NCBI GenBank assembly: GCA_046497275.1
Contig: JAWOFX010000172.1
Location: 1-24,000 of the forward strand
DNA from: Promethearchaeia archaeon
GTDB taxonomy: Archaea > Asgardarchaeota > Lokiarchaeia > Sigyniarchaeales > SOKP01
Length of the DNA stretch: 24,000 nucleotides
Direction of reading: 5' to 3'
The translations under genes were made by a program, and so were the position numbers. The notes under the pieces were generated by a model. The model was not told the DNA's origin. It saw only the letters and a program-made list of their open reading frames with translations, and made no database searches. Shown here in pieces: positions 5,123-21,845 of this stretch. How positions within the stretch are numbered: position 1 is the first letter of the stretch; each line of letters starts with the position of its first letter.

Positions 5123-7000
5123 GTGAAAAGCGATAACTCCATCTTCTCAAATACTTTCTATAAAAATATTATAGACTCACTTGATATACCAATATTAATT
5201 ATAAAAAAAATAGATAATCAATTTCTTATTATTGATTGTAATCTTGCTAGTGTAGAGATTTTTGAAAGAAATAAAGGAGATTTATTTGATCTAGATATAA
5301 TAGAACTTTACAAGAATGAAAAAATTATAGAAGATTTGAAAGAATGTTTCAATAAAAAAACACAATTCTCAAAATTAAGAAAATTACAGTATTTAGAATC
5401 TAAAGAACCCAAAATACAGATTATAAAATATCATTATATTGAATCAAATATGGCATTTTTATACTTTCAAAGTATAGAAAAATGTTTTGGGGATACTAAA
5501 AATAACAAAATGCAAGAAAAATATGTTCTGGAGAATCTTATCGAGCATATAGTCTTTCAAGATAACAATCACACAATTTTATGGGCAAATGAAGCCGCAA
5601 TAAAATCTATAAATGCAGATTTAAGTGATTTGGTAGGTAAGAAATGTTACGAAGTATGGGCAAATAGAAGTACTCCTTGTGAGAACTGTCCTGTTGAAGC
5701 TGCTATTAAATCGGGGAAATCAGAAATTGGCCAACAATCAACTTATGATGGAAGAGGATGGTATATTAAAGGTTTTCCAGTTAAAGATACTTACAATAAT
5801 ATAATTGGAGCTATAGAATATACAATTGATATAACAGAATGGTCTAATTTAGAAAAAGAATTATTAAATAAAACTAGATTAATGCATAAAATAACAGAAA
5901 CAAGCCCTGTTGCAATTACTCTTTTAAATCTGGAGGGAAATATTATTTTTTCTAACAAACGAGCAAAAGAGATTTTTGGGTTAAAGAGAGAAGAGATGTT
6001 AAGTAGAAAGTATAATTCTAAAGAATGGCAAATACATGATTTAGATGGTAATCCTTTCCCCGACGAAGAATTACCATTTCGTAAAGTAATAGAAAGGAAA
6101 AAGCCATATTATGGTATTAAACATCGGATAACAAATTCCGATGGAGATATGAAATATTTATCTATAAATGCGGCACCTTTATTTGGTGAAAATAAAGAGC
6201 TGATCAATATAGTCACTTCTATTGAAGATATTACTGAACAAAAAAAAACAGAGCAAAAACTTATAGAATCAGAAAAAAAATATCGTGAAGCATATAGCCA
6301 AATCAACCTATATAAAGATATTTTTGCCCATGATATAAATAATATTTTACAAAATATTTCCACATCAATCGAACTCTTAGATATATATTCAAACGAGAGT
6401 TATGTTTCAGATAATTTTAATGAAATTATTAAGATTATTGAAAAACAAGTTATGAGAGGGGCAAATCTTAATTCTAATATAAATGTGTTATCTCAATTAG
6501 AAAATAAAATAGAATCTTTAAAGCCAATCAACGCTCTTACCTATTTGAGAAAATCAGTTAATAAAATTAAAGATCATATGAAATACGACAAAAATATTGA
6601 AATAGAGATCAAAAGACTCCCCGTGGGAAATGATGTTTATATCAGAGCAAATAGTTTGATTGAATATCTATTTGATAATATTCTATTAAACTCAATATTA
6701 CACAATAAAAATGATCTTATTACTATTGAAATTAATATTGCACGAAAAGAAATAGAAGATTCAGATTATTTAACGATTGAATTCATAGATAATGGTGTTG
6801 GATTCATAGATGATTTTAAAAAGGAAATTTTTAGAAATAGTAAGGAATATAAAAGATTGGAGGGAATAGGCTTAGGATTTATGTTGATAAAGAAAATCAT
6901 AGAAACCTATGTAGGAAAAATTGAGATTGAAAATCGGAACGCTGATGATCCAAGCCAAGGAAGTAGATTTCTTCTTGTTTTGCCTGCAGCAAATATTTGA
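5123..7000 (+). CDS. multi-PAS sensor histidine kinase (cytoplasmic)
   Basis: 625 aa with a GTG start preceded by AGGGG at about 8 nt. It has at least two PAS-like modules; one carries CYEVWANRSTPCENCPVEAAIKSG (C-x11-C-x2-C). It also has H-box YKDIFAHDINNILQNI, N-box LNSILHN, G1 DNGVGF and G2 GIGLGFMLIKKIIE. The H-box region is paralogous to the 114-1607 kinase. Confidence 0.85.
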   Translation: MKSDNSIFSNTFYKNIIDSLDIPILIIKKIDNQFLIIDCNLASVEIFERNKGDLFDLDIIELYKNEKIIEDLKECFNKKTQFSKLRKLQYLESKEPKIQIIKYHYIESNMAFLYFQSIEKCFGDTKNNKMQEKYVLENLIEHIVFQDNNHTILWANEAAIKSINADLSDLVGKKCYEVWANRSTPCENCPVEAAIKSGKSEIGQQSTYDGRGWYIKGFPVKDTYNNIIGAIEYTIDITEWSNLEKELLNKTRLMHKITETSPVAITLLNLEGNIIFSNKRAKEIFGLKREEMLSRKYNSKEWQIHDLDGNPFPDEELPFRKVIERKKPYYGIKHRITNSDGDMKYLSINAAPLFGENKELINIVTSIEDITEQKKTEQKLIESEKKYREAYSQINLYKDIFAHDINNILQNISTSIELLDIYSNESYVSDNFNEIIKIIEKQVMRGANLNSNINVLSQLENKIESLKPINALTYLRKSVNKIKDHMKYDKNIEIEIKRLPVGNDVYIRANSLIEYLFDNILLNSILHNKNDLITIEINIARKEIEDSDYLTIEFIDNGVGFIDDFKKEIFRNSKEYKRLEGIGLGFMLIKKIIETYVGKIEIENRNADDPSQGSRFLLVLPAANI

Positions 7001-7272
7001 GATTATTTTTTATTCTTTCCGATTTATTGTACAATCACTATAAAGTAAAAAAAATTAAATAGTTCATAAATTATATTTTAATAAAATCTTAGATTTTTAA
7101 TGATATTTTTATAAATTTCTTTCCTAGTTGGGAGGAGGATCATTTTAACTACAAAGAACTGCCATAAAAAAGTCCTAAAGAAAAAAACATATCATTATAA
7201 TTATAGTAAATCCTTGGCGGAAACTTTTATAAGATTATATTTGGAGGGATAAAAATTACTTCAGTATTCATT

Positions 7273-7626
7273 GTGGAAGATGATAGATCAATACAGACCT
7301 TATATAAAAAGTTTCTTGATTTATACGGTTTTAATGTAGCCGGAACCGCCAGTAATGGTGAAGAAGCTGTCCAAAAATTTAGATCTTTTATTAAAAAACC
7401 AGATATAATACTTATGGATCATAGAATGCCAGTTAAAGACGGAATTGAAGCTACAAAAGAAATTCTCTCCATAGATAGTAGTATCAATATAATTTTTGCT
7501 AGTGCAGATAAAACAATAATGGATGAAGCACAAAAGTTGGGTATAATTAGTTTTCTTGAAAAACCATTTAGTTTAGAAATCCTGATTGATTGTATTAAAA
7601 ATCTGGGAACCCAAAAATCAGTTTAG
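7273..7626 (+). CDS. single-domain response regulator (CheY-like receiver)
   Basis: It has the acidic pair VEDD, the phospho-acceptor context IILMDHRMPVKDG, and the conserved Lys in LEKPF. There is no output domain. The first canonical start (GTG 7273) cuts off strand beta-1, which is encoded in frame upstream (KITSVFI), so the true start may be ATA 7249 or ATT 7255 after GGAGGG 7243-7248. Confidence 0.85.
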   Translation: MEDDRSIQTLYKKFLDLYGFNVAGTASNGEEAVQKFRSFIKKPDIILMDHRMPVKDGIEATKEILSIDSSINIIFASADKTIMDEAQKLGIISFLEKPFSLEILIDCIKNLGTQKSV

Positions 7627-12878: not shown

Positions 12879-14726
12879 ATGATAGAAGATCGTATGTTAT
12901 TAACTACCCCAACGTATCCCTACCCAACTCTTCCAGCAAATGATTCCCTTACCGACGCTACGGGACAGAGATTCACGAAGGGGGATGATATTTTTACATT
13001 AATTTCCCATACGCATTGCTACGCAAATCACATTTTAGCGCAAAATATTGATATCCCAGCAACTTTATTAGAATATCCCAGATGGGAAGATTTTACTGAA
13101 GAAGTTGATAAAAATTATGCTACAATAGGAATCAGCGCATTTCCTGTCCATCTTCAAACAGTCATAAAAATGTGTAAATATATTAGAGAAAATTCTCCAG
13201 ATACGACTATCCTTTTAGGTTCATACGCAGCACAAGCGTTTAAGGGAAGATATGACGAAGAGACTCAGAAAAAATATGTTGATCATGTGGTAAAAGGTGA
13301 AGGAGTTAAATTTCTAAGAGAATATCTCGGGGAGGAAACTGGGCGTCCCATTGACCAAAGATTAATGCCTAAATGTGGAGGAGTTCCATGGTTTATAGAC
13401 AGATTTCCCATAGGGAATGTAGGCTTTCTTGTATCTGGGCTAGGGTGCCCAGGTGGATGTGATTTTTGCTCGACCACAGAAATGTATGGATTTAAACGGC
13501 TCCAATTACTCTCTCCAGAGGAATTCATAAAACATATTGAATTATACCAAAAACATTTTCCCAATGTAAGACAAATATTTACAATTGAAGAGGATCATTT
13601 TAGACATCCTGAATATTTGATAAAAACGAAAGATTATTGGGGGAAGAATCCGGAAGTAGTAGAATCAATGGATTGGTTAGCTTTTGGTTCAGTTGATAAT
13701 ATTTGGAAGTTTGCTGATAAATATGGCTGGGATGCAGTAGCAGAGATAGGTATTGGTGCTATATTTATCGGAGTGGAATCTAAATTTGGTGGCGAGCATG
13801 GTTATGATAAAATAAGCGAGATTGACGCGAGAGAATTATTTCATAAACTTCATTCAATGGGAATTAGAACATTAGGAGCATGGATCTGTGGATGGGATTG
13901 GCATGATCATTCAAATATGTATGAAGATCTAAATTATTTTGTGGCATGTTATCCAACTTTCGTCCAGTTAACCAGATTGAGTCCATTTCCGGGGACTGTT
14001 CTCTATGATAAATTAAAGGAAGAGGGAAGAGTGAAGAATGTCCCTTGGGAAGATGTTCATTTTTGGAGTGGAGCCCAAGAAAATATTTCTTTAGAAACAC
14101 ATGAAACTCTGAATTTAACAGAATATGGCTATGACTTGCTCTATAGAACATGGGGACCTTCAGTACTTAGAAAGCTAGATGTCACCCTTAATGGATATGA
14201 GTATTGTTTACAATCTGATAATCCAATAATGCAAGAACATAAGTCTAAATTTTTCAAACAACAAGCAGCTGTGTTATGGAATTTAATTCCCGCAATGGAT
14301 AGATTCGCTCCAAATGGAGTAGTTAGGCGAAGAGTAAGAAAAATGGACGAAAAATATAGAGATCTTATAGGAGAACCTACCGCAGTTATGGAATTTTTAG
14401 GTAAGGTTGTTGATAAACTCGCAAAAGATTTTAAAAAGAAAGATTTTCTCGATCCTTTTAACAGACATCCAAAAGAAGAACCCTTTAAGCGTTATAAATA
14501 TGAGAAAGATGATAAGTTGCGAGATGGGGCAATTCCTTATACAACTGAATTTCCAGGTCACACCCCTTTAAAAACTACACTCTCTATGGGATGGAATAGT
14601 TTCAAATTTCGTATGTTAGGAAATTATTGTAAATTTTTGAAAGGATTAAAGAAGAAAAAGAGTGACACTGAAATTGATGGTTATCTTATCGAAAGTGTGA
14701 AAAAAAGAAATTTTATTGCTTTTTAG
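12879..14726 (+). CDS. B12-binding-domain radical SAM protein (class B-like), long C-terminal extension
   Basis: 615 aa. It has an N-terminal Rossmann-like cobalamin-binding region (ATIGISAFPVHLQTVIKMCKYIRENSPDTTILLGSYAA), then the radical SAM cluster motif GCPGGCDFCS (CxxxCxxC). The substrate cannot be inferred. The gene is visibly GC-richer than its neighbours. Confidence 0.85.
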   Translation: MIEDRMLLTTPTYPYPTLPANDSLTDATGQRFTKGDDIFTLISHTHCYANHILAQNIDIPATLLEYPRWEDFTEEVDKNYATIGISAFPVHLQTVIKMCKYIRENSPDTTILLGSYAAQAFKGRYDEETQKKYVDHVVKGEGVKFLREYLGEETGRPIDQRLMPKCGGVPWFIDRFPIGNVGFLVSGLGCPGGCDFCSTTEMYGFKRLQLLSPEEFIKHIELYQKHFPNVRQIFTIEEDHFRHPEYLIKTKDYWGKNPEVVESMDWLAFGSVDNIWKFADKYGWDAVAEIGIGAIFIGVESKFGGEHGYDKISEIDARELFHKLHSMGIRTLGAWICGWDWHDHSNMYEDLNYFVACYPTFVQLTRLSPFPGTVLYDKLKEEGRVKNVPWEDVHFWSGAQENISLETHETLNLTEYGYDLLYRTWGPSVLRKLDVTLNGYEYCLQSDNPIMQEHKSKFFKQQAAVLWNLIPAMDRFAPNGVVRRRVRKMDEKYRDLIGEPTAVMEFLGKVVDKLAKDFKKKDFLDPFNRHPKEEPFKRYKYEKDDKLRDGAIPYTTEFPGHTPLKTTLSMGWNSFKFRMLGNYCKFLKGLKKKKSDTEIDGYLIESVKKRNFIAF

Positions 14727-15153: not shown

Positions 15154-15882
15154 TCATTGATTTTTATTTTGAAATATGAGGAGATCTCTTGATCCAATTA
15201 AAATGAATTTTTTATTTAGACATATTCTCCTCCATTTATCAGTATGAAAAGATGTATTTTCATAGGGAACGGAAATCCTATATTTTAATTTCAAAAAATT
15301 TGACAAAATTTTTTCACATTCAAATCCTAAATCTATTAACTCTCTATTTTGTTCCCTTTTGTTAGAAATTATTAATGCTAAAAAACCATCTCTAGTTAAG
15401 CTGGTAAGAAATTTCTTCGCAGTCAATTCTATAGCATTTAAGAATTCTCTTAAATTTAGATTAGATAGATCTGTTCTTTCATTAGTATATTTACTTTTAT
15501 TCATATTAAAATAAGGAGGATCTAAGACAATTAATTTAAATATATTTGATTTAAAAGGGTTTTTATCTTCAATTACATTAAATTTCTTTATCTTTTTATT
15601 AACTGGATTAATATCTAATCCAATAACTCTTCTTCTCATTAGGTTTCCTGCATCCACCCCAGTACCACTACCACAAAAAACATCAAGAATATAATCATTT
15701 AAATCAGTAAAAAAATAGTATAGATTGATATAGATTTGACCTGGTATCCTTCCAGGATAAGGAAACCCAAATCTGTTGTCACATTTCTTAAAATGCCAAT
15801 TCGTTGTCGTTCTAATTATTTTTGGGTTTATTAATCTTAAATCATGAGGTAGATCCGTATTTTCTTGAACTAATTTTCTCAT
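15154..15882 (-). CDS. DNA methyltransferase, DPPY type (N6-adenine or N4-cytosine), motif I before motif IV
   Basis: 242 aa. It has the SAM-binding motif I LDVFCGSGTG (aa 66-75) preceded by FPYPGRIPGQI, and the catalytic motif IV VLDPPYFN (aa 119-126). It is divergent from a small nuclease gene. Confidence 0.8.
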   Translation of the reverse strand: MRKLVQENTDLPHDLRLINPKIIRTTTNWHFKKCDNRFGFPYPGRIPGQIYINLYYFFTDLNDYILDVFCGSGTGVDAGNLMRRRVIGLDINPVNKKIKKFNVIEDKNPFKSNIFKLIVLDPPYFNMNKSKYTNERTDLSNLNLREFLNAIELTAKKFLTSLTRDGFLALIISNKREQNRELIDLGFECEKILSNFLKLKYRISVPYENTSFHTDKWRRICLNKKFILIGSRDLLIFQNKNQ

Positions 15883-15912
15883 TAATCATGTTTTTTTTAT
15901 ATATAAGTATAA

Positions 15913-15980
15913 AAAACCGTAAAAATTATTTTTAATAGTTATTTTATTAGATCTCTATAAGCGTTTAAAACGGTAAAAAT
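15913..15980. promoter_or_regulatory. pair of near-identical 14-mers in the divergent methyltransferase/nuclease spacer
   Basis: AAAACCGTAAAAAT (15913-15926) and AAAACGGTAAAAAT (15967-15980) match at 13 of 14 positions. They are the only C/G-containing islands in the 143-bp spacer. One lies upstream of each divergent start codon. Confidence 0.3.
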
Positions 15981-16025
15981 CTAATTCATAAATAATATAT
16001 TTTGAACTAATTTAAATCAGAAAAA

Positions 16026-16520
16026 ATGAAAGAAAAAGATTATTATCCGATAATTAAGGTTTGGTTAAGAAATTTATTAGAAAGCTATTTTCCTAATAAG
16101 AATATCCATGTTTTTGACAGCTCGAATATTTATTTAGATAAACTTATTCAGGAAAATAATTGGACGAACTATCGTTCTGATTATGCAACTTATCAAATTA
16201 AAATTGATATTTTGGGAGTAATAATTGATGATGGAAAAATGGATTTTGTTTTCATTGAAGTGAAGAATACTAAAATTAGCTTAAAGGATGTTTCTCAATT
16301 ATTAGGTTATAGTAGAGTTGCGAATCCAATCTATTCAATAATAACCTCACCAAAATGGATTAGTAAACCAATAAGAATTTTATTTGATACTTATAGAAGA
16401 TTTGATATATTAAAATATGATCATAATAGAACCATAAAAGTATGTAAATGGGATAAAAACAAGAATGATATTGATTATAATTTAATATATCCAGGTAAAC
16501 CATTGTTTAATTCTTCTTAA
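16026..16520 (+). CDS. small PD-(D/E)xK nuclease (NucS/DUF91-like core), candidate restriction endonuclease
   Basis: 164 aa. The core is IKIDILGVIIDDGKMDFVFIEVKNTKISLKDVSQLLGY. This gives D61 ... E78-x-K80 followed by a QxxxY helix, the pattern of NucS-type PD-(D/E)xK domains. It is divergently paired with the DPPY methyltransferase. Confidence 0.6.
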   Translation: MKEKDYYPIIKVWLRNLLESYFPNKNIHVFDSSNIYLDKLIQENNWTNYRSDYATYQIKIDILGVIIDDGKMDFVFIEVKNTKISLKDVSQLLGYSRVANPIYSIITSPKWISKPIRILFDTYRRFDILKYDHNRTIKVCKWDKNKNDIDYNLIYPGKPLFNSS

Positions 16521-16525
16521 AATTT

Positions 16526-17488
16526 CTATTCTTCTTCATTCATGTAATTATTCATAAATTTCTGTTGATTAAATTCCTTACAACCTAAATCTCTACAAAT
16601 TTGCCAAAATGTATCATAATGGTTTCCTCTAATTTCGTCTGGTAAATCTTTATCATTTTCATCTGGATGGGGGGGATTTTTTCTTATTTTCCTTTCCATT
16701 TTTTTTATAGGATCACAGATACTACTTGAAATACCTTTCTCCTTATTTTCTTTAGCAAATTCTTGCGATTTATTATTCTTATGAGTAATATAAAATCCAA
16801 TGCTTTCAAAATCATGATTATATACCTTTATTTGATGTTCTCTTTTCGTCCACTTTTGATCTGGAGAATTTCTTAGATTAGGATGGCCCCAAGTCATAGT
16901 TTGAACGGGGATATTTAAATGATTCTGTAATAAATCACAAATTTGTATCGGTAAGTGCCAATTTTGATTTAAAACATCGATATAAATTCTATGACCTCCA
17001 TTTATATAAGCATTACTTTTCCTTACCTTTCCATTAACATCCACAAATCCTCTCATAAATTCTTTCTTAAAACTAATTGGAGATATAAATATTTCCTCAG
17101 GGACAGAAAATTCAGTGTAATCTTTTTTATTATTCAATAGCATCTGAATATCTCTGATAAAAAGAGTTTTCCTAGGAATTTCAAAAACTATTGAAACATA
17201 ATCATCACCTGGTTTTTTAAATGGGGTATTTGTTGTTAATTCGCTTAAACGATTAATTATAACATCAACACTCACTAACAAGGCATTTATATCACCCTCT
17301 CTGTCCCATGGAGATTCACCAATACGTAAGTTAGAATATGGAATCTCTATCGAAATAGTATAATGACCTCTATGCTCTAATATCGTTCCTCTGGCGACTA
17401 ACATTCCTAATAAATATGAGACATCTTCATCTAAATAATCAATAATTTTAATCATCAACCCTTTTTTGGAATAATAAAATATATTCAT
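16526..17488 (-). CDS. double-motif LAGLIDADG-like protein with both catalytic acidic positions substituted
   Basis: 320 aa. Motif 1 is YLLGMLVARGT (aa 25-35) and motif 2 is FMRGFVDVNGKV (aa 144-155), about 119 aa apart as in monomeric LAGLIDADG enzymes. Position 8 of each motif, normally Asp/Glu, is Arg and Asn. An alternative start ATG at 17455 (MIKIIDYLDEDV) overlaps the methyltransferase stop by 8 nt (ATGATTAA), which suggests translational coupling. Confidence 0.45.
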   Translation of the reverse strand: MNIFYYSKKGLMIKIIDYLDEDVSYLLGMLVARGTILEHRGHYTISIEIPYSNLRIGESPWDREGDINALLVSVDVIINRLSELTTNTPFKKPGDDYVSIVFEIPRKTLFIRDIQMLLNNKKDYTEFSVPEEIFISPISFKKEFMRGFVDVNGKVRKSNAYINGGHRIYIDVLNQNWHLPIQICDLLQNHLNIPVQTMTWGHPNLRNSPDQKWTKREHQIKVYNHDFESIGFYITHKNNKSQEFAKENKEKGISSSICDPIKKMERKIRKNPPHPDENDKDLPDEIRGNHYDTFWQICRDLGCKEFNQQKFMNNYMNEEE

Positions 17489-18302
17489 GTATCCTGTTAA
17501 CTCTGAAGACTGTTGGATATCCCAAAGGTCTCAAGTTATTATATTCCATTTGTCTATTCCATATTATAATATCATCAAGATAAAATCCAATTTCTCTCAT
17601 AAAATCTACAGTATCAATATGAAATGAATAGAATTTATCTTTTTTACGTATATCCATTAGGATTATTATGCAAAATTTATCCTTTTTGAGAAGAGAATAT
17701 ATTTGTTTAAAGATTTTTTTTAATTTTAACAAAAATTCATTATAATCTTCTATATTACCTAAATCTTGTTCATTATCGGAATAGGGTCGAATTTCTTTAT
17801 TATCAGCAGAACGTTTCATTCTTAGAATATCCCAATATGGAGGAGAAGTTAAGCATAAATCAATAGAATTTTCTTCTACAAATTCAGATATTTTATTTGC
17901 GTTTTTGTTATATATCTTAATATTTTTTTTCACTTCATTCGTCCCGAAGTTACTTGTAACCTTTTTTTGTTTAATTCTTTCCTTGAAAAGATCGATGTAA
18001 TTTTTATTAATTTCAAAACCTATTGCTTTTCTTTTATTATTTTTAGCTGATATTAGGGTACTTCCAGAACCAAAAAAAGGATCTAAAATAACATCTCCAG
18101 GTTTAGTAAAAATGTTTATAATTCGATCACATAATTTTAATGGAAACATTGCAGGGTGTCCTAGCTTTCTTTCCTCGGGTGTTTTAACTATATCCCAAAC
18201 ACTAATTGAATATTTTAACCATTTTTTACCATTTAAATTATTCAATCTTTTCTCATTTGATTCTATTTCATCTTCAGGAATTTCATTTTTTAGTTCAGTC
18301 AT
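17448..18302 (-). CDS. DNA methyltransferase, SPPY type (likely N4-cytosine or N6-adenine), circularly permuted motif order
   Basis: 284 aa. The block WDIVKTPEERKLGHPAMFPLKLCDRIINIFTKPGDVILDPFFGSGSTLISAKNNKRKAIGFEINKNY (aa 36-102) is the signature that normally forms the C-terminus of beta-class N4/N6 methyltransferases. Here it is followed by IDLCLTSPPYWD (aa 147-158) and IIIWNR, which normally form the N-terminal half. Confidence 0.85.
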   Translation of the reverse strand: MTELKNEIPEDEIESNEKRLNNLNGKKWLKYSISVWDIVKTPEERKLGHPAMFPLKLCDRIINIFTKPGDVILDPFFGSGSTLISAKNNKRKAIGFEINKNYIDLFKERIKQKKVTSNFGTNEVKKNIKIYNKNANKISEFVEENSIDLCLTSPPYWDILRMKRSADNKEIRPYSDNEQDLGNIEDYNEFLLKLKKIFKQIYSLLKKDKFCIIILMDIRKKDKFYSFHIDTVDFMREIGFYLDDIIIWNRQMEYNNLRPLGYPTVFRVNRIHEYILLFQKRVDD

Positions 18303-18979: not shown

Positions 18980-20929
18980 ATGAATAGAAATAAAATGAAT
19001 AACTATTATGAAAAGGATAAGTTTAAAAACCCAAATACAGAAATTAGGAATGTCTTGTTGATTGATAGCTTTCTTCCAGAAGAAATTGAATTTATAAGAA
19101 ATAAATCAATTAATATTGATAATTTAAAAAGTAAATGGTCATGGTTATATGAAAATCCCTCTTATGCGGAAGATTTTTTTATTTTTGTTGTTTTACCTTA
19201 TTTTATTGCCAAACCTCAATTAAATAATTGGGAACTAAAAAAACTATGTCTAAGTCCGTTTAAGTATGCTTTAAAATCGTATAGAGATAAGTTTGATTCA
19301 AATTTTTATACTTTTGGTCAATTAAAAAGAAAGTATGGGAACTTTAACTTTTCAGATCTTTGTAGGCTAATAGGAGAAGATAAAGCAAAACAAAAAGTGA
19401 ACCATGCTAAAAAAAGAATAAAAGATATTTTAGGAAGTGATAGTCCCAAAATAAAAAAAATTAGAGTTTATCTAAGAGAATTGGATTGGGATAAAGATAT
19501 TGATTGGACAATATTTAAATTTATAAATAAGAACAGAACTGATATGATTATTCTGGAGCCAAAAAATACATGTAGCGAAGAGAATCCATTATACATGCAT
19601 AAGGAATGGTTAACTCGTATATATAGGGATGAGAATTTACATCTTAATGATCCTCAAATTGCCCAGATTTGCGGTGTAAATCATTCAGCTATTTATAAAT
19701 GGAGGAAGAGATTTGGAATCCAAACTAAGCCAGACGTTCAAATTAAGGAATTAAAAAGAAAAAATAGTGCTGGTTATGTTGAAAAATTTATGCCAATGGA
19801 GTACAATCATCCTAATATTAATAAAAAATATGGAGAAAGACAAAAAAGAAGAGAACATGTTGCCATTATGGAAAATTTTTTATCGAATATTTCTCAATCT
19901 GAGAGTTATATAAGATTCGGTTTATATCCAGATGAGATAAAGGAAAAGTACCTGCTTTCTGATCGCTATCTTAAGAAGGAATGCGTCGTACATCATATAA
20001 ATTTTATAAAATCTGATAATCGAATAAATAATTTATGGCCTTATGAAAATAATCAAAAGCATAATGAACTTATAGATAATCTGAATAAATGTTTTTCATT
20101 TCTAATAAAAGTAGGACAAATCTTTTTTGAAAATGGAAAATATTATCTTAATGAAAGATGTGATTATAGGAAAATCCCAAAAGAGAAATTAAAGGAATTA
20201 TTAAAATCTCATTATAAGCCAAATCCGTATAAAAATCTTAAGGATGTCAAAAACGCATTAATTGATAAAAACATAATAAATTGGGATGAAATTCTCGCTG
20301 ATCTTCAAGATTGGCGGATTGAGTATAAAGTCAATCAATATAAAAGTTTTATTATTGAACTTAATCCTTACAATTATCCTTCTGAAAATAATCCCTTATA
20401 TATGAAAAAAGAATGGTTAGAAACCGTTTACAACGACGAAAGATTCAATTTATCTGATTCTAGATTAGCGAAAATCTGCGGTGTCCCAAAAACTCGGATT
20501 ACAGATTGGAGAGGGAACTTTGGTATTGAAGGAGGATGGAAACGATGGCTCAGAATTATAAATGAGGGTTTCGTGTGGATTCTTGTGCCCGTGAATTATA
20601 ATCCTAATGCTTACAAAAGAGACGGAAGAATGTTAGAACATAGATATCTAATTGAGAGATATTTATCTAGATGTTGTAGTGAAGAAATAAAAAGTAAATA
20701 TTTAGAGGATGGAAAATATTTAAAAAATGGTATTATTGTCCACCATATTAATTTTGACACACTAGATAATCGATTAAAAAATTTATGGATTTTTAAATCG
20801 AGAAGTGATCATTTAAGTTGTCATCATTCACTATATAAATTGATAGATAAACTTTTAAAAAAAAATTTCTTAATTTTCAGAAAAGGGAGATATCTTATTA
20901 ATTATCGTAAAAAAAAATACCATAAATGA
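18980..20929 (+). CDS. tandem-duplicated HTH + HNH endonuclease (two complete modules in one chain)
   Basis: 649 aa.
- Module 1 (aa ~200-390): NPLYMHKEWLTRIYRDENLHLNDPQIAQICGVNHSAIYKWRKRFGI ... REHVAIMENFL ... CVVHHINFIKSDNRINNLWPYENNQKHNEL.
- Module 2 (aa ~469-641): NPLYMKKEWLETVYNDERFNLSDSRLAKICGVPKTRITDWRGNFGI ... LEHRYLIERYL ... IIVHHINFDTLDNRLKNLWIFKSRSDHLSCHH.
Each module is an HTH followed by an HH-N-DNR-NL-H (HNH) core. The N-terminal ~190 aa were not recognised. Confidence 0.75.
   Translation: MNRNKMNNYYEKDKFKNPNTEIRNVLLIDSFLPEEIEFIRNKSINIDNLKSKWSWLYENPSYAEDFFIFVVLPYFIAKPQLNNWELKKLCLSPFKYALKSYRDKFDSNFYTFGQLKRKYGNFNFSDLCRLIGEDKAKQKVNHAKKRIKDILGSDSPKIKKIRVYLRELDWDKDIDWTIFKFINKNRTDMIILEPKNTCSEENPLYMHKEWLTRIYRDENLHLNDPQIAQICGVNHSAIYKWRKRFGIQTKPDVQIKELKRKNSAGYVEKFMPMEYNHPNINKKYGERQKRREHVAIMENFLSNISQSESYIRFGLYPDEIKEKYLLSDRYLKKECVVHHINFIKSDNRINNLWPYENNQKHNELIDNLNKCFSFLIKVGQIFFENGKYYLNERCDYRKIPKEKLKELLKSHYKPNPYKNLKDVKNALIDKNIINWDEILADLQDWRIEYKVNQYKSFIIELNPYNYPSENNPLYMKKEWLETVYNDERFNLSDSRLAKICGVPKTRITDWRGNFGIEGGWKRWLRIINEGFVWILVPVNYNPNAYKRDGRMLEHRYLIERYLSRCCSEEIKSKYLEDGKYLKNGIIVHHINFDTLDNRLKNLWIFKSRSDHLSCHHSLYKLIDKLLKKNFLIFRKGRYLINYRKKKYHK
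19577..20149 (+). repeat. intragenic repeat unit 1 (HTH-HNH module 1)
   Basis: Protein-level duplication with 20384-20902. The HNH core 1 is encoded at about 19991-20074. Confidence 0.7.
20384..20902 (+). repeat. intragenic repeat unit 2 (HTH-HNH module 2)
   Basis: Protein-level duplication with 19577-20149. The HNH core 2 is encoded at about 20741-20824. The linker between HTH and HNH is about 19 aa shorter than in module 1. Confidence 0.7.
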
Positions 20930-21062: not shown

Positions 21063-21845
21063 TTATTTATTCATAAAAGATATTAATTCAGTGCCTATCT
21101 CTCTCAATTCTTCAATCCATTCATTTAATTGATCCGAATTTACATCTCTTTTACCATGAACTAAGTAATTTCTTATCTGATAAAATTTTAGGATTTTCTC
21201 TGCGAATTCGGAGGATATCTTTTTATTTTCCTCCAGTAAAGGGATTATTTTCAAGATAGTATAAGGTTTATTTATTTTTGGTATTAAACTCTCCGTTAAA
21301 GTAAAATTTCTTAGATTAGTTCGAATTTCATTCCAAATGTCTAAAAATAATTTTATTTGTTCTTCTTTTTCATTCATTTCTATTTCTCCTAATATTTTTT
21401 CATCTTTAATTCCAAATAATTCTTTTATAATATTCTTCGCTAATTCTAAATAGATAGGAACTACCTCCTTTTTTGGTATTATACCTATAGGTTCATGATA
21501 TAGACTATTTCTTAAATTATGGTAAAACTCAATCGCATCAAGATCGCTTTCTGGGATATTTTTAGGAGAATATCTCAACAATACGTCTAATAAAACAGGG
21601 AAAGATCTTTTAGCATTTTTGAACTCTTTTCTATTAATTCCTAAGGACCTTCTATTAATCATCAGATATGTTTTTAACGCAATTTCAATAGCATTATCAA
21701 TACTGATTAAAGCTATTCTTAAATCAAAATCTTCTCCTTTTTTAAAATGATCACTTGCATGTCTTAAAAGTTCCGAAAATCCTTCGATCCAAGTTTCAGA
21801 AGTGATTAAAATCACATTTTTTTGATTTATTTTAATATTAATCAT
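21063..21845 (-). CDS. single-chain tandem HEPN-like protein (two RNxxxH motifs), predicted RNase/toxin
   Basis: 260 aa, predicted all-helical by composition. Motif 1 is FYHNLRNSLYHE (R112-N-S-L-Y-H117, nt 21495-21512). Motif 2 is FYQIRNYLVHG (R225-N-Y-L-V-H230, nt 21156-21173). Each closes a segment of about 115-130 aa that begins with a long helix (e.g. DLRIALISIDNAIEIALKTYL), as in HEPN domains. Confidence 0.55.
   Translation of the reverse strand: MINIKINQKNVILITSETWIEGFSELLRHASDHFKKGEDFDLRIALISIDNAIEIALKTYLMINRRSLGINRKEFKNAKRSFPVLLDVLLRYSPKNIPESDLDAIEFYHNLRNSLYHEPIGIIPKKEVVPIYLELAKNIIKELFGIKDEKILGEIEMNEKEEQIKLFLDIWNEIRTNLRNFTLTESLIPKINKPYTILKIIPLLEENKKISSEFAEKILKFYQIRNYLVHGKRDVNSDQLNEWIEELREIGTELISFMNK

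Follow-up and report, generated by a model that had tools for sequence, protein, structure and literature searches.

A candidate two-subunit restriction endonuclease pairing a degenerate LAGLIDADG protein with a small PD-(D/E)xK nuclease

The subject of this analysis is a compact gene cluster at positions 15154–18302 of a 24,000-nt stretch of DNA from a Promethearchaeia archaeon (contig JAWOFX010000172.1, positions 1 to 24,000; hereafter the window), which we read as a candidate Type II restriction-modification system. The cluster holds a DNA methyltransferase gene, M1 (284 amino acids (aa); 17448–18302, minus strand; Pfam N6_N4_Mtase, expectation value (E) 1e-39; PADLOC MTase_II, E 6e-53), and a gene for a large subunit, L (309 aa; 16526–17455, minus strand), with a double LAGLIDADG fold and a proposed role in DNA recognition. 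These are followed by a gene for a small PD-(D/E)xK nuclease subunit, S (164 aa; 16026–16520, plus strand), and by a second DNA methyltransferase gene, M2 (242 aa; 15154–15882, minus strand; Pfam N6_N4_Mtase, E 3e-13; PADLOC MTase_II, E 2e-18). S converges on L, with 5 nt between the two stop codons, and diverges from M2 across an AT-rich intergenic region of 143 bp (15883–16025), which, from this layout, presumably holds the promoters of both genes. An earlier reading of the window from its sequence alone (the sequence-only reading) had drawn attention to M1 and L, without mention of the convergent S gene or of M2.

What that reading had described at the junction of M1 and L was confirmed in the sequence: the 284-aa SPPY methyltransferase ends with a TAA stop codon at 17450–17448, and L has two possible ATG starts, at 17488 for 320 aa and at 17455 for 309 aa, the latter giving an 8-nt overlap with M1 (ATGATTAA). 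The shorter form is the likely product, because homologues of L have their start (M-x-DYLDEDV) at the position corresponding to 17455 and the public database record of L is also 309 aa long. In that record (P0001), residue 94 (17174–17176) is His, where the window has Pro.

Sequence comparison places L in no established family, with no significant match in Pfam, NCBIfam, PADLOC or PHROGs. Its best Pfam match at E up to 0.1 was DUF3990 (E 0.098), and neither HTH_WhiA nor any other helix-turn-helix (HTH) domain was detected with Pfam. Against PDB sequences, an L profile returned nothing meaningful, and a single-sequence phmmer search gave a marginal match (E 0.06) to the TliVMA (Thermococcus VMA) intein endonuclease in which both motifs were aligned. 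The AlphaFold2 model, built from 40 homologues and the database sequence, differing from the window protein only at P94H, reached a predicted local distance difference test score (pLDDT) of 91.6 and a predicted template modelling score (pTM) of 0.91. The modelled chain consists of a LAGLIDADG-type unit, a second such unit at residues 127–240 and a helical tail. All 50 PDB matches listed by Foldseek were LAGLIDADG proteins (probability 1.00), led by the TliVMA intein endonuclease (7qss, E 1.5e-7) and including PI-PfuI, PI-SceI, I-AniI, the bI3 maturase, I-DmoI, I-OnuI variants and WhiA. By this model L is a double LAGLIDADG fold, as the sequence-only reading had proposed from two motif-like helices. 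L shares with I-DmoI, I-AniI, PI-PfuI and TliVMA the fold, the topology and the placement of two LAGLIDADG helices at the domain interface, and with monomeric LAGLIDADG homing endonucleases the Gly residues at motif positions 3 and 9 and the Asp at position 6 of motif 2.

The resemblance to active homing endonucleases ends at the metal-binding acids. The motifs LLGMLVARG (residues 15–23; 17387–17413, minus strand) and MRGFVDVNG (residues 134–142; 17030–17056, minus strand) lie 119 residues apart, and position 8 is Arg in the first (R22) and Asn in the second (N141), just as first reported. In an alignment of 84 representatives of the L family (80% identity cut, drawn from 166 loci), position 8 of motif 1 was Arg in 78/82, His in 2/82 and Lys in 1/82 sequences, and position 8 of motif 2 was Ala in 50/84, Thr in 20/84 and Asn in 4/84. 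Asp or Glu was absent at position 8 of either motif across these representatives, so that the loss of both catalytic acids extends from the window protein to the family as a whole.

Most family-invariant polar residues are found in LAGLIDADG domain 2 (residues 127–240; 16736–17077, minus strand): R145, N148, R156, N165, W166, H191-P192-N193, E206-H207-Q208 and K226, next to D139 (motif 2 position 6), which is likewise invariant. The conserved Arg, Asn, Glu, Gln and Lys residues lie on hairpins and strands, and mean entropy across the beta-sheet is 1.25 bits in domain 2 versus 2.33 bits in domain 1 (Mann-Whitney p = 6e-5). This pattern is compatible with a short, conserved half-site being read by one of the two domains. 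In a subfamily of L-S fusions (see below) whose methyltransferases differ, R145 and N148 are not retained, which fits these two residues making specificity contacts rather than serving in catalysis. The tail (residues 245–309; 16529–16723, minus strand), helical in the model, bears the His and Cys residues that had been noted before (C247, H263, H279, C287 and C292), and, H263 excepted, each is conserved in 95% or more of the family. The set C247/H279/C287/C292 suggests a zinc-stabilised module, and the tail is possibly the docking site for S.

The catalytic signature that L lacks is present in S, which carries D61 (16206–16208), E78-x-K80 (16257–16265) and Q91xxxY95 (16296–16310) in the arrangement D-x16-ExK-x10-QxxxY. 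D61, E78, K80, Q91 and Y95 were invariant in 40 diverse homologues (26–57% identity), and D61, E78, K80 and Q91xxxY95 likewise in a set of 59. The AlphaFold2 model of S (pLDDT 96.4) has a restriction-endonuclease-like alpha/beta core, for which Foldseek returned NucS (E 2e-3), BsaWI, AF1548, PaqCI, MspJI, MunI, BamHI and EcoRI. Sequence matches were fainter: Pfam gave weak NucS_C and HSDR_N_2 matches, a profile search of PDB sequences found NucS/EndoMS at no better than E about 1, and NCBIfam, PADLOC and PHROGs gave no significant family match. By motif and model, S is a PD-(D/E)xK nuclease of predicted activity. The modelled protein is a bare nuclease core, comparable to NucS and to the FokI-type and PaqCI cleavage domains, with no obvious recognition elements.

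To place the gene pair in context, we compared 171 loci, namely the window and 170 others with an L homologue, which came from individual homologue look-ups, from 80 of 360 GTDB genome matches and from 80 of at least 440 metagenome contig matches. An S homologue lay immediately downstream of L in all 165 loci in which the contig continues; the other six end at a contig edge. Two look-ups seeded with distant S homologues found L upstream in both cases. The two genes were co-directional in 159/165 loci, mostly overlapping or separated by a few nucleotides, and convergent in the remaining 6/165, which are the window and its Promethearchaeota-type relatives. In these five closest relatives (L007/L008, S at 6909–7409, minus strand; L011, L012 and L091) S is inverted and converges on L as it does in the window. 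It seems, from gene order, that a local inversion gave S a promoter region of its own, shared with the divergent M2.

The family is large and widely scattered. L homologues numbered 63 in the protein collection, 360 species matches in GTDB (archaea and bacteria) and 509 clusters at 50% identity, the latter obtained when 1.84 billion cluster representatives were searched with a profile at a cut-off of E 1e-3. Carriers range over Asgard archaea, Bathyarchaeia, Chloroflexota, Poribacteria, Bacteroidota and plasmids of Lactobacillaceae, cultured strains included. Among the cultured carriers are Lactiplantibacillus plantarum P9 (plasmid p9, NZ_CP060181), Alkaliflexus imshenetskii DSM 15055 and Bizionia sediminis KCTC 42587. 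On 6.5-kb Lactiplantibacillus plasmids the L/S system sits beside replication and toxin-antitoxin genes. This patchy spread fits what is expected of mobile restriction-modification systems.

Both methyltransferases of the window carry the motifs of amino-methyltransferases: FFGSG (motif I, residue 76) and SPPY (motif IV, residue 153) in M1, and FCGSG (residue 69) and DPPY (residue 121) in M2. The best PDB relatives of M1 are TTHA0409 (2zie, E 4e-26) and N4-cytosine methyltransferases. M1, as an SPPY enzyme, is probably an N4-cytosine methyltransferase, and M2, as a DPPY enzyme, probably an N6-adenine methyltransferase. In each protein the S-adenosylmethionine-binding F.GSG motif precedes (S/D)PPY, and Pfam N6_N4_Mtase aligns in two stretches, the best stretch of M1 (residues 22–108) falling on the C-terminal part of the model (positions 132–221); together, the split alignment and the motif order indicate that M1 and M2 are circularly permuted relative to this beta-class model. 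A characterised close homologue from which to infer the recognition sequence was not found for these methyltransferases.

Across the family, the methyltransferase is a constant companion of L, while its type changes. A DNA methyltransferase was encoded within 4 kb in all 81 loci with full flanks, in line with the tie to methyltransferases proposed by the sequence-only reading, and the immediate upstream neighbour of L was an M1-orthologous N6_N4 methyltransferase (SPPY) in 110/139 loci, the others being D12, C5 or EcoRI-like. When types were counted by catalytic motif (iterated hidden Markov models for N6_N4 and D12 converged on overlapping sets), an SPPY enzyme of the M1 type was present in 76 of the 81 full-flank loci: alone in 47, together with a DPPY enzyme in 27 and with a second SPPY enzyme in 2. 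The DPPY partner is of the N6_N4 family, as in the window, or of the D12 family, and is either separate or, in Bacteroidota, fused into a 613-aa protein. The remaining 5/81 loci are of the Lactobacillaceae type, with a 700-aa fusion of an EcoRI-like and a C5 methyltransferase part. A universal pair of methyltransferases, which would have implied an asymmetric site, is ruled out by the 47/81 loci with an SPPY enzyme alone. As for the proposed translational coupling, the tight junction is a general feature, with the methyltransferase stop falling between −35 and +30 nt of the predicted L start in 125/147 loci with a same-strand upstream methyltransferase; the exact 8-nt overlap is not, recurring in only 2/147. 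In Bacteroidota loci (L079, 5612–5986; L068, 4942–5391; and others), a conserved open reading frame (ORF) of 124–149 aa lies between the fused D12 + N6_N4 methyltransferase gene and L. It matched no Pfam family, resembled none of L, S and M1, and could encode a controller.

In part of the family, L and S are a single polypeptide. At least 26 of the best 150 of the 509 clusters are L-S fusions of 539–557 aa (hmmsearch of the S domain, E 1e-15 to 1e-35), and the fused S domain retains D, ExK and QxxxY in 8/8 examined. Four fusion loci share a layout in which the fusion gene is followed, with an overlap, by a free S paralogue, then by an N6_N4 methyltransferase in convergent orientation and by a further gene, which encodes a gamma-class (Eco57I/TaqI_C) methyltransferase in L172 and L175; in the other two, the contig ends within it. 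The free S paralogues beside the fusion gene (L172, 2857–3354; L173, 2204–2701; L174, 2696–3214; L175, 5611–6072) keep D61 and have, in 4/4, lost E78 (to N/F), K80 (to E/D/M) and Q91 (to E). From these substitutions the free paralogue is likely a pseudo-nuclease partner. An intact fused S next to a degenerate free one implies that the nuclease modules seem to act as a pair, of which one member is possibly a pseudo-enzyme. Three of the fused proteins (P0212, P0216 and P0224) contain a zinc-ribbon-like CxxC...CxxC insertion of ~30 residues in LAGLIDADG domain 1 (residues about 45–75) that the window L does not have.

More distant L-like proteins also adjoin methyltransferases and small PD-(D/E)xK proteins. 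One group, of 461–482 aa, has another C-terminal domain, and another, of 905–1299 aa, has a long N-terminal region. In the latter (P0227–P0230, P0266 and P0327), the L-like domain is at or near the C-terminus and the N-terminal region has no Pfam match; at locus L176, the P0227 gene is followed by an N6_N4 methyltransferase gene and then by one for a 217-aa protein with a PD...ELK motif. Proteins of 400–446 aa (P0276, P0279 and P0316) have an N-terminal region that looks HEAT-repeat-like by eye, and P0279 has no Pfam match.

Taken together, we consider it probable, with moderate confidence, that the genes at 15154–18302 make up a Type II restriction-modification system and that its endonuclease is split between two proteins, L finding the site and S cutting it. 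This reading follows from the constant linkage to changing methyltransferases, the intact S motif, the patchy spread and the L-S fusions; the nuclease genes are combined with SPPY N6_N4 enzymes, with D12 + N6_N4 enzymes, with the EcoRI-like + C5 fusion or with gamma-class Eco57I/TaqI_C enzymes. We assign the roles from the missing LAGLIDADG active site of L and from the model of S, which shows no more than a nuclease core. If this is correct, L would be a domesticated monomeric two-domain LAGLIDADG scaffold that, having lost both metal-binding acids, serves for sequence recognition and DNA clamping, with recognition mainly through the conserved beta-sheet of domain 2. S, as a NucS/RecB-like PD-(D/E)xK module, would dock on L, with the Cys/His tail as a possible site, and bring the catalytic centre; probably working as a pair of modules, it would cut both strands, and methylation by M1 and M2 would protect the sites of the host. 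We infer the division of labour, the stoichiometry, the cleavage site and the methylated bases, and regard recognition by L and cutting by S as the most economical arrangement. Among the possibilities raised by the sequence-only reading, we thus retain, as our inference, a homing-endonuclease scaffold that has been domesticated and serves as a partner protein binding specific DNA sequences. An L that is itself an endonuclease with a non-canonical active site is probably not what the family contains, as the adjacent S provides the catalytic centre (165/165 loci, the fusions and the invariant motif). Nor is L probably a controller of the methyltransferase, the evidence pointing to a restriction endonuclease subunit.

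Several observations weigh against the two-subunit reading. Double-strand cleavage is not accounted for by one S active site alone, and the fusion subfamily, with its degenerate free S, might be limited to nicking or might cut the two strands sequentially. The single methyltransferase of most loci (47/81) sits awkwardly with a strictly asymmetric target. In addition, the invariant domain-2 residues H191, N193, E206, H207, Q208, R156 and K226 could form an unrecognised active site or an S-binding surface.

The best of the alternatives gives the enzyme two active sites, as in the Class III heterodimeric Type IIS/IIT enzymes BtsI, BsrDI and BspD6I/BstNBI (PMC1950550, PMC3017599): L would recognise and nick through domain-2 residues (e.g. 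H191, N193, E206, H207 and D139), and S would cut the other strand. Like L/S, BtsI, BsrDI and BspD6I combine a large recognition subunit with a ~19 kDa small PD-(D/E)xK subunit expected to be inactive alone. The likeness to BtsI goes further, with subunits of ~36 and 19 kDa mirroring those of BtsI at 38 and 18.6 kDa, and with two amino-methyltransferases, as in many L/S loci, mirroring its M1 and M2 (PMC1950550). Candidate catalytic groups would come from the many invariant His, Asn, Glu, Gln, Arg and Lys residues concentrated in domain 2. In the fusion subfamily, where the second S-like protein is degenerate, both strands would fall to a single PD-(D/E)xK site if L did not contribute. We nevertheless find this heterodimer unlikely. 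No acid occupies the canonical metal positions in the 84 L representatives, and substitutions of this kind go with an absence of DNA cleavage in WhiA (PMC3384342); the loss of R145 and N148 in the fusion subfamily is behaviour expected of specificity residues. The large subunits of BtsI, BsrDI and BspD6I are PD-(D/E)xK nickases (EcoRI-like in the BtsI/BsmI family, FokI-like in BspD6I), whereas L is a LAGLIDADG protein without a recognisable active site: the catalytic motif of BtsIB (P57, D58 and E72; PMC2909958) has no counterpart in L, and the crystal structure of BsmI shows EcoRI-like, central and FokI-like domains, so that the BtsI/BsmI family is EcoRI-like plus FokI-like and not LAGLIDADG (PMC11889245). 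Membership of L/S in the BtsI family, BtsI being compared by description, is rejected on the fold, on the absence of a conserved PD at L residues 57–58 and on the lack of a BsmI sequence match: neither the L nor the S profile matched BsmI at E up to 10 in PDB sequences that include 9f38. The 5027 PADLOC models, which cover proteins of known and candidate anti-phage defence systems, gave no match either; a match to a known restriction-enzyme family, which the sequence-only reading had named as a refutation, was thus not found in PADLOC or against BsmI in the PDB.

We regard it as rather improbable that S is a self-sufficient homodimeric Type IIP enzyme and that L takes no part in cleavage, acting instead as a modulator or as a WhiA-like DNA-binding regulator, in effect a giant controller. 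Complete Type IIP enzymes of ~160 aa exist, PvuII being an example, and the single methyltransferase of most loci suits a palindromic site. Dead LAGLIDADG proteins are known as transcription factors (WhiA), and natural fusions of restriction endonucleases with regulators are on record (PMC3850674). WhiA/DUF199 is one of the closest known systems: it shares with L the monomeric two-domain fold (Foldseek, 3hyi, E 5e-5), an additional C-terminal module after the two domains and the loss of both acids, with Arg and Gly at the catalytic acid positions and, in Thermotoga WhiA, Arg at the acidic position of motif 1 (PMC3384342). Unlike WhiA, L ends in a Cys/His helical segment instead of HTH_WhiA and stands outside a Gram-positive whi operon context; it is invariably accompanied by a PD-(D/E)xK nuclease, encoded next to it or in the same chain, and by a linked DNA methyltransferase. 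Among the Foldseek matches listed, L is also structurally nearer to archaeal intein endonucleases than to WhiA. A regulator would not be expected to pair with S in 165/165 loci, with reading frames that mostly overlap, and to keep doing so while the methyltransferase family changes, nor would L-like domains be expected to pair with other small PD-(D/E)xK proteins in the distant architectures. The lack of HTH_WhiA or another HTH in L (Pfam), the bare core of the S model and the size of a 300-aa regulator, which would far exceed that of known controller proteins, argue in the same direction.

A further variant, to which we give slightly less credence, makes L a strand-specific nickase with a new, non-carboxylate active site formed from H191, N193, E206, H207, Q208, R156 and K226, S again cutting the other strand. 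Two unrelated catalytic centres of this kind, one a LAGLIDADG site invented anew and the other of the PD-(D/E)xK type, would explain why a degenerate second S paralogue is tolerated in the fusion subfamily.

Finally, that L and S are not restriction proteins at all but a mobile homing-type or repair-type module travelling with methyltransferases (e.g. a nuclease of NucS type acting on mismatches or damage, with a subunit that targets it) is very improbable: its support is the weak kinship of S to NucS/EndoMS (profile E about 1; Foldseek E 2e-3), the intein homing endonucleases as nearest structural relatives of L among the matches listed and an HNH homing-like gene 680 bp away (18980–20929), against which stand the adjoining methyltransferase in 81/81 full-flank loci, changing in family and constant in position, the 6.5-kb Lactiplantibacillus plasmid setting typical of addictive restriction-modification modules and the absence of any intein, intron or insertion-site signature around L in the loci examined. 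L thus departs from active homing endonucleases in its missing position-8 acid, in its freedom from introns and inteins and in being encoded in one operon with S and a methyltransferase.

Other genes of the window surround the cluster. The HNH homing-like gene on the plus strand encodes 649 aa with two tandem HTH + HNH_3 modules; it matches Pfam HNH_3 (E 2.6e-10, in two stretches), HTH_23 (E 3.5e-7) and HNH endonuclease families of PHROGs, and a repeated 'NPLYM(H/K)KEWL...' segment marks an internal duplication in what resembles a homing-type HNH endonuclease. Directly upstream of the cluster, a 615-aa ORF (12879–14726, plus strand) has sub-threshold Radical_SAM (E 5e-5) and B12-binding (E 2e-3) matches, and may encode a divergent B12-dependent radical SAM enzyme. 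A 260-aa ORF (21063–21845, minus strand) weakly matches HepT-like ribonucleases (E 1.5e-4, under the Pfam cut-off) and may be a toxin-type gene. The HepT-like and HNH genes hint at a small defence or mobile region at 15–22 kb despite flat base composition; the available DNA shows no genomic-island signature, being uniformly ~26% GC with its sole tRNA distant.

The known folds of restriction endonucleases are PD-(D/E)xK, HNH, GIY-YIG, PLD and half-pipe, and we know of no LAGLIDADG restriction endonuclease. We judged the novelty of L/S against Pfam, NCBIfam, PADLOC, PHROGs, PDB sequences and the literature, where no restriction enzyme with a LAGLIDADG component turned up and nothing relevant on methylomes of carrier strains. 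A 2012 review of homing-endonuclease relatives counts restriction enzymes among the host relatives and, in the part of its text consulted here, discusses WhiA as the sole bacterial LAGLIDADG host relative (PMC3384342). A close parallel to the proposed design is artificial: inactive I-SceI has been fused to PvuII, FokI or MutH, giving laboratory constructs with 18-bp specificity (Fonfara et al. 2012, PMC3258161; PMC3627573). In these, as proposed for L/S, a dead LAGLIDADG DNA-binding module delivers a PD-(D/E)xK cleavage module, and the natural 539–557 aa L-S fusions are single-chain versions of that design. L/S differs in being natural, ancient, widespread and tied to methyltransferases, and its site is presumably short and protectable by methylation.

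If our reading is true, L/S would connect the LAGLIDADG fold with restriction-modification for the first time and would represent a second, independent domestication of the LAGLIDADG scaffold as a DNA-binding module. It would also provide a natural precedent for engineered fusions of dead meganucleases with nucleases, with a possible use as compact, modular site-specific nucleases or nickases whose recognition scaffold is well understood for re-engineering. The family is large and spans both prokaryotic domains, cultured strains and small plasmids, and the proposed roles of L and S are therefore open to experimental test.

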